Of a stretch of 64,000 nt of DNA, positions 60,753 through 64,000 are shown piece by piece (position 1 is the first letter of the stretch; each line of letters opens with the position of its first letter). A program made the position numbers and the translations under genes. The stretch is from Promethearchaeota archaeon (lineage in GTDB: Archaea; Asgardarchaeota; Lokiarchaeia; Sigyniarchaeales; SOKP01). The stretch is from positions 430,449 to 494,448 of the forward strand of contig JBHLOY010000001.1 in the NCBI GenBank assembly GCA_048939995.1, given 5' to 3'. Below the pieces are notes generated by a model. It did no database searches, was not told the origin of the DNA, and saw only the letters and a program-made list of their open reading frames with translations.

Positions 60753-62021
60753 TTAGGTGCCTTCTTCGTAGCCATGGATGTAGTTATATTGTTCCTCGGT
60801 TAGTTTATCTATCTCAACGCCCATTGACTGAAGCTTTAGAAAGCCTACTCTATTGTCAATCTCGACAGGTACATCAACCATACCTGGTTTTAATGAGCCT
60901 CTGTTTTTGACGATATATTCAGACATTAAGGATTGAAGACCGAACGACATATCCATTACTTCAGCAGGATGCCCTTCGGAGAGCACTAAATTAGCTAATC
61001 TTCCCTTAGCAAGTAAATAAATTCTTTTATCATCAGGAAAAGTGATTTCTTCGACGTTACTTCTTATTGGCTTGATTTCTTTAGCGTATTCATAAATTTC
61101 CTTAGTTGGAATCTCAATGTCAAAATGTCCTAGATTACCTAAAATGACTCCATCTTTAAGAGCATCGAAGTTTTCTTTTGTAGGTAATATCACATGTTTG
61201 CATCCCGTCGCAGTTAAAATGATATCTGCGATGGGTAAAGCCTCTGAAATAGGCATAACTTGGTATCCTGCAAATTTAGCTTGGAGTGCTTTAATCGGAT
61301 CAATCTCAGTAACGATTACATTTGCACCCAAACCACGTGCTCTCAATGCCATCCCGCTACTGCAATGACCGAATCCTGCCACGATAACATTCTTACCAGC
61401 AAATAAAACGTGCATTCCATAAATTGCGGCTACGATGCCTTGCCCAGTTCCTAATTCATTGTCAAACTGATTTTTGCATCTCGCGTCGTTTACTGGGAAG
61501 AGTGGTACTTTTAAGTCCCCCCCTTTGTCCATTGCTCTAAATCGCTTAACTCCAGTTGTAGTTTCTTCTTGACAGCCAATAATAATCCCTTCAGTGATCA
61601 ACTCGGGAAATTCTTTATGTGCGGTTACTATCATATCTGCTCCATCATCAATCAAAATATTAGGTTTAGCACCTAAACATTGTCGAATGCACCAATAGAA
61701 TTCCTCATCAGTATTTCCGTGCCAAGCAAATACGTTTATACCTTCTTTTACCAATGCAGCTGCTACATCATCCTGAGTTGATAAGGGATTACTACCGCAT
61801 AGATAAACTTCAGCGCCTCCTGCTTTAAGAGTCCTTGCTAAATTTCCAGTTTCTTTAGTTATGTGTAAACATCCTGCAATTATTATACCTTCCAAGGGTT
61901 TTTCCTTTTGAAACCTTTCACGAATTACCTTAGCAGTGATAGGCATTTTACTTTCTGCTATATATAGTGCTTCCATCCCTTGATCAGCTAAATTTTCATC
62001 TGCAACTTTATAATTTACCAT
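60753..62021 (-). CDS. ahcY: Adenosylhomocysteinase
   Basis: CLHITKET, SNPLSTQDD, DDGAD, EETTTG, FDNELGTGQ, GHFD, GRLANL, GHPAEVMDMSF. Confidence 0.95.
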   Translation of the reverse strand: MVNYKVADENLADQGMEALYIAESKMPITAKVIRERFQKEKPLEGIIIAGCLHITKETGNLARTLKAGGAEVYLCGSNPLSTQDDVAAALVKEGINVFAWHGNTDEEFYWCIRQCLGAKPNILIDDGADMIVTAHKEFPELITEGIIIGCQEETTTGVKRFRAMDKGGDLKVPLFPVNDARCKNQFDNELGTGQGIVAAIYGMHVLFAGKNVIVAGFGHCSSGMALRARGLGANVIVTEIDPIKALQAKFAGYQVMPISEALPIADIILTATGCKHVILPTKENFDALKDGVILGNLGHFDIEIPTKEIYEYAKEIKPIRSNVEEITFPDDKRIYLLAKGRLANLVLSEGHPAEVMDMSFGLQSLMSEYIVKNRGSLKPGMVDVPVEIDNRVGFLKLQSMGVEIDKLTEEQYNYIHGYEEGT

Positions 62022-62158
62022 TTTAGTCACTTAAATATATGTATGAATATTAATTTTAATTAATTAATAAACCTTTTTTTGGTTGAGTGCAAATATTTTT
62101 ATAAATAAGTTTACATTTAATTAATAATAATCACATAATTTTGTAATATTGTAATTAT

Positions 62159-63442
62159 ATGAGTATAGATAAAAAACTAAAAGAAATCCAAAAATTTATA
62201 AAAAATTTAAATGGAAAGACCAAGTTCATTGTATCACAAAATTCACATGCGTTAGGACTATCTAGACAGACTTATCAAAACAAACTTGATAGTTTGAGAG
62301 AGCAGAAAATAATTACTAATTTCACAATAAACATTAATCCAGATATTCATCCCAACAACTTGAAGTATGTAATGCTTGAAATTAAAACTAACCCAAAAGA
62401 ACCTGAGCTGGTTAAGGAACTATTAGAAATACCCCAGTTAAGAATGTTGGATGGAATAATTGGAGATTTCTCCTTATTCTCCTTGTTTATCTTTAAATCC
62501 CCTGAAGAATATTTTCAGATATTAAATAAAATAGATAATATAATGGCAAAATCATACTTTAAAAAATATAAAATAATTGAAACTATAAAGGTATATAAGA
62601 CAAATGGAATTAGCTTAAGAAAATCTAAAGTGTCTTATGAAGAAGAACTCGTGGAAAAATTAAATCATAAGTTTCAAAATCAAGATGTTGATGAAAATGA
62701 TAAGGTAATTGTTAAGATGTCAGAAAAAGTTGATTTAAATGAAATTGCTAAAAAAATGCAGAATATTGAGTACGATCCTAAGAGATTTCCGGGCCTTATT
62801 ATAAAGATAGTAAATAGTAGTATTAAAGTTATACTTTTCTCAAATGGGAAAATAATTATCACTGGTTTAAAGAATGCCGCAAATGTAACTCAAATAATCA
62901 ATAAAATAATTGAAAGCATAAAAAAAACTGGAATAAGTTTAGATAAGAAAAATTTTGACTTAAATTATGAGATTGATGATATTGATTATACAATTTTAAC
63001 CATTTTGCGAGATAATCAAGGTCCTAAACCAATATCCACCTATGAAATAAGTAGATTTTTTAAAGATCGATACAAAACAGAAATTTCTCAATCAACTATT
63101 CATAATAGAGTGAAAAAATTAGAAAAAAAAGGAGTTATTTTAAATTATGCAATAAATTTTTGTCCAAAAAAAATCGGTTTTGAAGGAAAATATCTCCTTC
63201 GAATAAAACCAAAAGATCCATCAAAATATAATGAACTCGCCCTCAAACTAGATATGAATAAATATATTACTGATTTATTTAGAATAGGTGAGCAATTTGG
63301 TTTATTTGCTATTGTCAGAGTAGAAAAAATTGAAGAATATGCGAGGTTTATTAAGGATTTATACACGTCAGAAGAAATTGAAGATACCTTTACAAATTTT
63401 GTTTTAGACGAATTAATTACCTGTAATAATTTTGTGTTATAG
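62159..63442 (+). CDS. Tandem Lrp/AsnC regulator with an inserted TBP-like repeat
   Basis: Two HTH+RAM units (LGLSRQTYQNKLDSL; ISQSTIHNRVKKLEKKGVI) flank EYDPKRFPGLIIKI...LFSNGKIIITG. Confidence 0.85.
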   Translation: MSIDKKLKEIQKFIKNLNGKTKFIVSQNSHALGLSRQTYQNKLDSLREQKIITNFTININPDIHPNNLKYVMLEIKTNPKEPELVKELLEIPQLRMLDGIIGDFSLFSLFIFKSPEEYFQILNKIDNIMAKSYFKKYKIIETIKVYKTNGISLRKSKVSYEEELVEKLNHKFQNQDVDENDKVIVKMSEKVDLNEIAKKMQNIEYDPKRFPGLIIKIVNSSIKVILFSNGKIIITGLKNAANVTQIINKIIESIKKTGISLDKKNFDLNYEIDDIDYTILTILRDNQGPKPISTYEISRFFKDRYKTEISQSTIHNRVKKLEKKGVILNYAINFCPKKIGFEGKYLLRIKPKDPSKYNELALKLDMNKYITDLFRIGEQFGLFAIVRVEKIEEYARFIKDLYTSEEIEDTFTNFVLDELITCNNFVL

Positions 63443-63517: not shown

Positions 63518-64000
63518 ATGACTCATTTTTATGAGATATTAAATAAAAAGATCGGTTACTCTAGAATAGGTAGAATTATTTTATCGAAGGATTCTAAGAA
63601 GTATGTAAAGACACCTAATGTTATAATTCCTATGCGAAACTTTTTGATGAAAAATGTAAATTACTTAGATGAATTTGAGGATCATGAAGTCTTTATAATA
63701 TCAAAAGAAGTTTTTCTAAAAATTGGTTTTTTTAGAGAAAAATTTAGAAATACTGCTTTTATTTTCACTCACATGGGTACATTAGATACATTTATAGAGA
63801 TTATTGAAAAAAATATTAATGCCTTCTCTAAAGACAATATTATACTGTTAATTCCATTTAATATCCCTACAAGTAGTATTAGCGAAACCTTTACAAGACA
63901 TGAGATTGAACACTATCTTGAATCTGTACGCAATCTTTTACAGAAGTATCAAGAACTCAATTTTGGGTTGTCCATTAAAATTTTTGAATCGCCAGCATTA
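63518..64000 (+). CDS. tRNA-guanine transglycosylase/archaeosine synthase-like protein (partial)
   Basis: MTHFYEILNKKIGYSRIGRII...VKTPNVIIP resembles the TGT/ArcS N-terminus; runs off the window. Confidence 0.55.
   Translation, partial: MTHFYEILNKKIGYSRIGRIILSKDSKKYVKTPNVIIPMRNFLMKNVNYLDEFEDHEVFIISKEVFLKIGFFREKFRNTAFIFTHMGTLDTFIEIIEKNINAFSKDNIILLIPFNIPTSSISETFTRHEIEHYLESVRNLLQKYQELNFGLSIKIFESPAL

Follow-up and report, generated by a model that had tools for sequence, protein, structure and literature searches.

Capture of a TATA-binding protein lobe by an ahcY-linked tandem Lrp regulator of Asgard archaea

Introduction

Archaeal Lrp regulators bind beside the TFB recognition element (BRE) and the TATA box, and work with or against the TATA-binding protein (TBP) (PMC2995911). 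FL11/PH1519 (2cyy, 2e1c), P. furiosus LrpA (1i1g), E. coli AsnC (2cg4), and M. jannaschii Ptr2 all share one module, a winged helix-turn-helix (wHTH) plus a RAM domain, and autoregulated, divergently arranged genes are typical of the Lrp/AsnC family. The talk between such bacterial-type regulators and the eukaryote-like basal machinery of archaea is understood in few cases (Ptr2, LrpA). Here we describe a gene on a 64,000-nucleotide stretch of a Promethearchaeota genome (contig JBHLOY010000001.1, positions 430,449 to 494,448; this whole stretch is called the window below). It lies divergently next to ahcY, the gene for S-adenosyl-L-homocysteine (SAH) hydrolase, and encodes a tandem Lrp regulator with one lobe of TBP in its linker.

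Domains with the TBP fold are known outside TBP. Brindefalk et al. 2013 (PMC3597702) described them in euryarchaeal single-TBP-domain proteins, the N-domain of RNase HIII, DNA glycosylases, and the appendages of adaptin and COPG. In the present case, the N-terminal lobe of TBP was captured once into the linker of the ahcY-linked regulator, where it is under selection and yet dispensable.

Results

One TBP lobe between two Lrp/AsnC modules

The gene and its parts in the window are as follows (aa, amino acids).

62159..63442, + strand: tandem Lrp/AsnC regulator with inserted TBP lobe, 427 aa plus stop (open reading frame and Pfam domains)
62159..62623, + strand: N-terminal Lrp-like module, aa 1-155, with a diverged HTH and a RAM-like beta-alpha-beta-beta-alpha-beta fold (alignment, AlphaFold2)
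62627..62692, + strand: linker helix with which the insert begins, aa 157-178 (domain model)
62693..62944, + strand: TBP lobe, aa 179-262, with short S1, H1, stirrup EYDPKRFPGL, S3-S5, and H2 (PF00352, fold model)
62972..63439, + strand: C-terminal Lrp/AsnC module, aa 272-427, with AsnC-type wHTH and RAM domain (Pfam, Foldseek)

The order is thus diverged Lrp module, linker helix, TBP lobe, and Lrp/AsnC module. PF00352 (TBP) matches the protein once, at aa 185-256, with an E-value of 6.6e-19 and 68 bits against a cut-off of 22.9. The C-terminal module is matched by PF01037 (AsnC_trans_reg/RAM) in two stretches with 36 bits (cut-off 25) and by HTH_24 with 27.3 bits (cut-off 21.9), the matches together covering aa 272-417. 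An HTH_AsnC-type match (E 3.4e-4) stays under its cut-off, and NCBIfam models of Lrp/LysM/AsnC (E 1e-12 to 1e-14) stay under their equivalog cut-offs. NCBIfam TBP models reach 37-66 bits against cut-offs of 181-347, as expected because the domain is half a TBP. Both domains by which the Lrp/AsnC (FFRP) family is recognized, the AsnC-type wHTH and the RAM domain, are present.

No Pfam model is reached by aa 1-155 searched alone. However, the N-terminal module aligns with the C-terminal module over HTH plus RAM by BLASTP (E 1e-5, 25% identity), and in the AlphaFold2 (AF2) model it has helices at 2-15, 25-31, and 36-48 followed by strands and helices in the order E/H/E/E/H/E, so that the beta-alpha-beta-beta-alpha-beta pattern of RAM appears in both modules. 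Its HTH signal is weak, but its recognition-helix region aligns to module 2, and the recognition helices of both HTHs are nearly invariant among orthologues, in which the whole N-terminal module is very conserved. Because of the module-to-module alignment and the same three-helix plus RAM-like pattern, the protein is taken as a double Lrp/AsnC protein with a diverged first module. It is a single-chain ‘pseudo-dimer’ of two Lrp/AsnC-type modules, with HTH plus RAM occurring twice.

An earlier note on this DNA had read 62693-62935 as one TBP repeat, aligned without gaps and keeping both DNA-intercalating Phe residues, in the linker of a double Lrp/AsnC protein transcribed divergently from ahcY. 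That segment corresponds to aa 179-259, and each of these points was borne out. By phmmer against PDB sequences, the segment is gapless over 82-86 residues to N-terminal lobes of archaeal TBPs, with whole-chain E-values of 7.6e-28 for M. jannaschii TBP (2z8u) and 7.4e-26 for S. acidocaldarius TBP (1mp9). Both Phe residues are in place, as F210 in RFPGL and F227 in LFSNGK. The PF00352 scan proposed in that note likewise came out in its favor, and the ortholog comparison proposed there found forms with and without the insert at the same locus and with the same conserved intergenic region.

The segment folds as a TBP N-terminal lobe

When aa 157-272 were modelled alone, the predicted local distance difference test score (pLDDT) was 84.4 and the predicted template modelling score (pTM) was 0.76. 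The model has an N-terminal helix followed by S1-H1-S2-S3-S4-S5-H2. This helix, the linker helix, spans residues 4-17 of the domain model with pLDDT about 84, and S1 is only 4 residues long. With the segment model, the top 44 Foldseek matches in the PDB are all TBPs, with about 80 aligned residues, root mean square deviations of 2.5-3.5 Å, and about 30% identity. VIA-align, which is independent of Foldseek, gives Z-scores of 9.0 (1mp9, S. acidocaldarius), 8.8 (7o4i, yeast), and 8.0 (5fur, human), all on N-terminal lobes of TBP (chain ranges 13-101, 70-150, and 168-249), whereas unrelated folds score 5.5 or lower. The segment is therefore a TBP domain both by the PF00352 threshold and by fold.

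The full-length AF2 model has pLDDT of 64.6 and pTM of 0.38, but pLDDT is 79-86 over the lobe. With this model, FL11/PH1519, AsnC, and LrpA are among the top Foldseek matches (E 1e-8 to PH1519, AsnC, and others). We also considered a reading as an enzyme, AhbA/B siroheme decarboxylase of the Lrp fold, but its NCBIfam match is weak (E 0.0099) and its Foldseek rank low. It was rejected because the HTH recognition helices and the intergenic DNA are conserved.

Distribution of the fusion gene

By word-indexed search of proteins from NCBI, JGI, ENA, and Logan, we found this trio of Pfam families in about 90 clusters (at 90% identity). The assemblies of these insert-bearing clusters are named Promethearchaeota, Lokiarchaeia, and Thor- or Hermodarchaeota. 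The same search also gave 318-aa proteins having the same backbone without the insert. In public annotation, the family goes by ‘Lrp/AsnC ligand binding domain-containing protein’ or ‘hypothetical’.

Among 400 genomes searched at E 1e-30 or better, the backbone occurs in 125 of the 134 genomes of the window's GTDB family, with one copy per genome, and in none of the 266 other genomes of the phylum. At the same threshold, no tandem Lrp backbone was found in two closed, single-contig genomes of the sister family f3 (G135, 4.4 Mb; G138, 6.0 Mb), and the gene seems confined to one GTDB family, of which no cultured member was noticed. The insert, called by open-frame length and match pattern, is present in 37 of 126 backbone-bearing species genomes including that of the window.

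The window's genome has one copy of the fusion gene and one ordinary two-lobe TBP on another contig. PF00352 matches in this genome are the TBP and the fusion gene only, with no stand-alone TBP lobe, and no insert-less paralogue of the regulator was found there. An assembly or gene-calling artefact, by which a chimeric contig would join a TBP gene and an Lrp gene, has nothing in its favor and deserves practically no credence. The open reading frame is uninterrupted in about 90 clusters of independent assemblies and 37 species genomes at a constant syntenic position, and the real TBP of the genome lies on another contig. The objection of an assembly chimera, raised in the earlier note itself, is refuted, and the fusion gene is genuine.

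Incidentally, PF00352 matches number 4-9 in many relatives from the same GTDB family, a sign of several TBP paralogues, and some relatives have odd PF00352 counts or unusual frame lengths of 148 and 279 aa (G253:C143:11956-12195 and G157:C110:1842-2078 among examples). TBP lobes may thus occur in further contexts in these relatives. A plant protein of 376 aa (P0162, Penstemon davidsonii, KAK4492228.1) has four PF00352 repeats, equal to two TBPs in tandem, and probably reflects a gene model in which tandem TBP genes were fused.

Origin of the insert in the lineage's own TBP

Compared with the TBP of the same genome, the lobe is 40% identical to the N lobe (E 1.5e-20) and 31% identical to the C lobe (E 8.6e-8). 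A hidden Markov model (HMM) of the insert family scores 120.6 bits on the N lobe of this TBP and 47.9 bits on its C lobe. A tree was built from 29 inserts together with 84 N lobes and 84 C lobes. Its inserts make up a single clade, nested among Asgard-like N lobes and next to the N lobe of the own TBP, and the well-supported set enclosing them consists of the 29 inserts, 13 N lobes, and 2 C lobes. Three inserts (P0041, P0052, and P0057) even retain ..DYKIEN.. ahead of S1 like the own TBP. These sequence comparisons trace the insert to the N-terminal lobe of the lineage's own TBP.

The own TBP (L001:1135-1803) starts with a tail of about 30 residues before its first lobe, almost all Glu or Asp. 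MAFFT aligned the start of the insert's linker helix (..SYEEE..) over the end of this acidic tail, part of which may have been captured along with the lobe. Insert length ranges from 91 to 123 residues, and the linker helix is missing from inserts of 91-95 residues.

Single gain and later losses

The insert site is a linker of roughly 8 residues between RAM1 and HTH2. We fetched 80 orthologous loci, covering 11 of the 13 genus codes of the family. Using only the flanks, we inferred a tree with tandem Lrps labelled as Helarchaeota and Bathyarchaeota for its root. The insert is absent from the basal lineages of this tree, and all 27 insert-bearing genes belong to one clade of 36 (SH-like approximate likelihood ratio test, SH-aLRT, 93). 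The other 9 genes of the clade are insert-less and form three sub-clades. The tree fits a single gain of the insert and, later, probably about three losses.

The insert clade has a GISL signature, and its nested insert-less genes retain it. In these genes, the three residues that open the insert are also still present (EMS, KTS, or KVT versus KMS or KVS), joined straight to the ..F(E/D)LD.. start of module 2, and the junctions are 6, 7, and 12 residues long versus 8-10 in the basal forms. These genes look like the products of independent, clean in-frame deletions. When one insert-bearing clade without secondary loss was imposed, the approximately unbiased (AU) test gave a delta lnL of 49.4 and a p-AU of 0.067, not rejected at 0.05. 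Because the loss-free tree is not rejected, the case for secondary loss relies on the free tree and the junction remnants.

The insert clade mixes the genus codes g1, g2, g5, g9, and g12. The ahcY tree, weakly resolved, does not recover this clade and requires 12 changes, but its well-supported branches force only 3 of them, and members of genus g1 are dispersed on it as well. This tentatively suggests lateral exchange of alleles between genera.

Relaxed purifying selection and uneven residue conservation

The ratio of nonsynonymous to synonymous substitution rates (omega) was calculated by the Nei-Gojobori method from 76 unsaturated pairs, with synonymous divergence (dS) up to about 1. The median omega is 0.363 (maximum 0.71) for the TBP core versus 0.117 for the flanks, and in each pair the core has the higher value. 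Amino-acid identity averages 79% in the flanks versus 47% in the core. Purifying selection thus acts on the lobe, but it is about three times more relaxed there than in the flanks. None of the 27 fetched insert-bearing loci has a frameshifted or decayed copy.

Residue conservation in the insert family was compared with that in 84 N lobes and 84 C lobes of TBP.

First Phe (RFPGL; F210): insert family 100%; TBP lobes 98%
Gly of SxGK (G230): insert family 100%; TBP lobes 97-98%
Basic positions (yeast R105, K120, K127): insert family 74-90% K/R; TBP lobes 86-96% K/R
Second Phe (F227): insert family 85%; TBP lobes 96-97%
S5 Thr (T235): insert family 37%; TBP lobes 71-88%
Gly after S5 Thr (G236): insert family 74%; TBP lobes 100%
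S1 Asn: insert family 56%; TBP lobes 92-97%
Val two residues after S1 Asn: insert family deleted in 70%, else variable; TBP lobes 94-95% Val

F210 and G230 are invariant in 90 sequences. The best-conserved parts of the lobe are the stirrup and H1, with F210 at 100%, P207, P211, and G212 at 93% or more, and L193 and I196 at 95%. In TBP, each lobe contacts DNA through the Asn and Val of S1, two Phe, a Leu, and the Val and Thr of S5. Residue roles in the insert were assigned from the yeast, human, and P. woesei TBP complexes. This per-lobe set (yeast N69, V71, F99, L114, F116, V122, and T124) is not kept family-wide. In TBP, S1 lies at the center of the saddle, paired with S1′ of the partner lobe. 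The N-(I/V)-V motif at its start is conserved at 92-97% in TBP lobes but has decayed in the insert family, where 70% of members lack both residues following the Asn and the rest vary at these positions. The window's own protein keeps the S1 Asn, F210, F227, and the S5 Thr/Gly, and has Lys in place of the S1 Val.

Human TBP contacts TFIIB through E284, E286, and L287. The C-lobe stirrup of TBP reads E (77%), P, E (80%), and Q (55%), and this E-P-E-Q/L type, with which C lobes can bind TFB/TFIIB, was not found in the insert family. The stirrup of the inserts reads N (78%) or D (14%), P, E (57%) or K (14%), and K (51%) or R (45%), i.e. N/D-P-E-K/R as in N lobes.

The ahcY locus and its conserved control region

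The other features at this end of the window are as follows.

60753..62030, - strand: ahcY (S-adenosyl-L-homocysteine hydrolase), divergent neighbor (PF05221, E 7.8e-60; PF00670, E 6.5e-43)
62022..62158, no strand: divergent ahcY/regulator control region of roughly 137 bp (alignment of 36 orthologous intergenic regions)
62081-62094: candidate operator block GGTTGAGTGCAAAT (GGTnAAATGCAAAT), directly 5′ of the TATA-like run
62096-62107: TATA-like run (ATTTATATAT), immediately 3′ of the GGTnAAATGCAAAT block
62139-62155: candidate operator block, TGTAATATTGTAAT-like (TGCAAAATTGTAAT-like), just before the ATG
63518..64000, + strand: 5′ portion of the co-directional gene downstream, which runs past the end of the window; ArcS-like (TGT plus DUF5591) in orthologous loci

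The ahcY open reading frame is listed from GTG at 62030 (MTKMVNYKV). The ATG at 62021 (MVNYKV; TACCAT on the + strand) is conserved in orthologous loci and is likely the true start. The 160 aa of the downstream gene inside the window have no Pfam match, and its counterparts in orthologous loci carry PF01702 and PF17884. Divergent ahcY is found in 79 of the 80 fetched loci, the sole exception being cut by a contig end, and the co-directional ArcS-like homologue is found in 65. The locus order is the same with and without the insert: ArsA, ahcY (-), regulator (+), ArcS-like TGT+DUF5591, radical SAM, Gar1, and TFB. The downstream string of ArcS-like, radical-SAM (RaSEA-like), Gar1, and TFB genes is conserved (L008:6441-11045, L010, L011), so that a tRNA-modification pair using S-adenosylmethionine (SAM) and a basal transcription factor lie just downstream of the ahcY regulator.

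The 36 aligned intergenic regions are strongly conserved in the insert clade, with one consensus for genes with and without the insert. The candidate operator blocks contain G/C, are roughly 60 bp apart in direct orientation, and abut TATA-like runs; a ACATTTAATTAATA block is also present in the region. Sequence-specific DNA binding with a small-molecule effector is predicted indirectly, from the conserved intergenic region with these candidate operator blocks. Since this region is conserved and ahcY is divergent, a local regulator of the divergent promoter pair fits.

Discussion

We tentatively favor the explanation that the lobe is an optional accessory promoter-DNA contact of the ahcY-linked regulator rather than a replacement of TBP, and rate it a little short of an even chance. 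The protein would regulate the local pair of divergent promoters, those of ahcY and of its own gene, with RAM domains that probably sense a methyl-cycle metabolite or an amino acid. The HTH modules would dock on the conserved operator blocks beside the TATA-like runs. From the docked regulator, the lobe could then add a minor-groove or bending contact near the TATA box, or compete with TBP there, using what is retained of its concave face, namely invariant F210, mostly retained F227, and K216, K231, and K238. This contact would tune repression or activation without replacing TBP. The lobe would be accessory, not essential, because insert-less orthologues have the same locus and promoter, and an accessory contact is likelier than a private TBP because the lobe is optional and its central DNA-reading strand is lost.

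Several observations weigh against such a DNA contact. Because N-(I/V)-V of S1 is lost or changed and conservation of the S5 Thr/Gly is poor, TATA recognition in its canonical form is not preserved, and the Phe residues that remain could instead contact protein. Insert-less and insert-bearing forms share the promoter region, and no DNA feature co-varies with the lobe. The operator role of the conserved blocks is predicted from their conservation, and the full-length AF2 model is too poor to place the lobe relative to the HTH domains.

A contact with protein rather than DNA is the alternative to which we give some weight, although it is rather unlikely in our estimate. The N lobe might pair with free TBP in the manner of TBP dimers, dock on the regulator's own RAM domains as an intramolecular mimic of the Lrp-TBP contact of Ptr2, or touch TFB or RNA polymerase (RNAP) to recruit or sequester it. 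Ptr2, LysM, and Ss-LrpB activate through direct RAM-TBP contacts (PMC2995911), in support of the earlier note, which had stated that archaeal Lrp activators act through TBP. TBP-fold domains also act in protein interaction elsewhere, as in the appendages of adaptin and COPG (PMC3597702). By ‘Rosetta stone’ logic, together with the known RAM-TBP contacts, the fusion points to an Lrp-TBP partnership. Moreover, conservation within the lobe is highest in the stirrup and H1, whereas the residues at its center that read DNA in TBP have decayed. On the other hand, the stirrup is of the N-lobe type (N/D-P-E-K/R) and not of the TFB-binding type (E-P-E-Q/L), and the archaeal N-lobe stirrup has no known partner. 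The basic residues of the concave face are also still kept. The lobe could instead be a near-neutral passenger, a tolerated expansion of the linker with little function of its own and heading for loss. Its omega of 0.36 versus 0.12 and identity of 47% versus 79% in lobe and flanks, the seemingly clean deletion about three times, and the length variation from 91 to 123 residues are what one would then expect. Yet omega is below 1 in all 76 pairs (0.71 at most) with dS up to about 1, the fold is confidently predicted, F210 and G230 are invariant in 90 sequences, and decayed or frameshifted copies are absent from the 27 insert-bearing loci, leaving this explanation distinctly unlikely.

The earlier note had gone further, proposing that dimerization rebuilds a TBP-like saddle for ligand-gated, promoter-specific initiation or TATA occlusion. 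In such a scheme, two chains or a higher oligomer would pair their lobes as an N-N saddle and kink a TATA box without free TBP. Lrp proteins do oligomerize (PMC2995911), the window's protein keeps both Phe, the S1 Asn, and the S5 Thr/Gly, and the control region is full of TATA-like runs beside conserved blocks. However, S1, the strand that would supply the seam between the lobes and the central contacts with DNA, is only 4 residues long in the AF2 model and lacks its motif by deletion in 70% of the family; F227, T235, and G236 vary across the family; the C-lobe-type stirrup for TFB is absent; a normal TBP is kept in the genome; and the lobe seems to have been lost repeatedly with the promoter unchanged. 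We consider a rebuilt saddle very unlikely. Of the interpretation in that note, a regulator carrying its own half-TBP stands, and a working TBP saddle for promoter-specific initiation as proposed there is not supported, given the S1 motif, the variation of Phe, Thr, and Gly, the N-type stirrup, and dispensability.

A broader version can be framed, in which a TBP-like saddle tethered to the regulator assembles on the TATA-like run by the operator, either from lobes of at least two chains or from one lobe and one of free TBP. It is improbable by our judgment. If true, the tethered saddle would nucleate or block the pre-initiation complex at the promoter of ahcY or of the regulator itself in response to a metabolite. 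It would then be a natural ‘activator-bypass’, a gene-specific factor that has taken a piece of the basal machinery into itself, and this in the lineage of archaea nearest to eukaryotes.

The natural lobe-less orthologues at one locus offer a ready comparison, with the same promoter and the same backbone with or without the lobe. This comparison can show what a single TBP lobe does, whether DNA grip, bending, competition with TBP, or partner binding. The fusion is ‘Rosetta stone’ evidence that the regulator family works at or with the TATA/TBP step, and it points to a so far unrecognized dedicated regulator of SAH hydrolase in Asgard archaea.

Comparison with known systems

We found no description of an Lrp-TBP fusion in the full-text literature, in a search with most subscription journals outside its coverage, and neither Lrp nor AsnC occurs in the text of Brindefalk et al. 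2013 (PMC3597702). The fusion is apparently undescribed so far. In contrast to the Lrp/AsnC regulators mentioned in the Introduction, two modules lie here in one chain, the first is strongly diverged, and a TBP lobe occupies the linker between the modules; none of the characterized members compared has a domain of a basal factor.

The nearest relatives are insert-less tandem Lrps. Orthologues of 318-335 aa in the same Asgard family share the backbone, 54-84% flank identity, and the ahcY-linked locus, and relatives named Helarchaeota and Bathyarchaeota (307-325 aa) share the backbone. They have an 8-10-residue linker in place of the 91-123-residue insert.

With the N lobe of TBP (own TBP; 1mp9, 2z8u, 1ais, 1ytb), the insert shares the S1-H1-S2-S3-S4-S5-H2 fold at 30-40% identity, and the window's protein also shares the stirrup Y-N/D-P-x-x-F-P-G-L and the Phe pair. 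Unlike TBP, it is one lobe embedded in another protein, with the S1 motif, the S5 Thr/Gly, and the second Phe relaxed family-wide. The single PF00352 stretch does not make the two-lobe saddle of the basal factor. Nor is it a monopartite TBP as described by Brindefalk et al., which stands alone in under about 150 aa, whereas the lobe here is internal to a 427-aa protein.

The proteins collected by Brindefalk et al. resemble the fusion in that a single TBP-fold domain works alone or as a module, binding nucleic acid (RNase HIII) or protein (adaptins). Those domains are ancient and highly diverged, whereas the insert is recent and clearly a TBP-derived N lobe (E 1e-19 to Pfam TBP). Both components of the fusion, the Lrp/AsnC regulator and the TBP-fold module put to another use, are of known kinds. 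Among TBP-fold domains that serve in other proteins, the lobe is a young and clearly TBP-derived addition.

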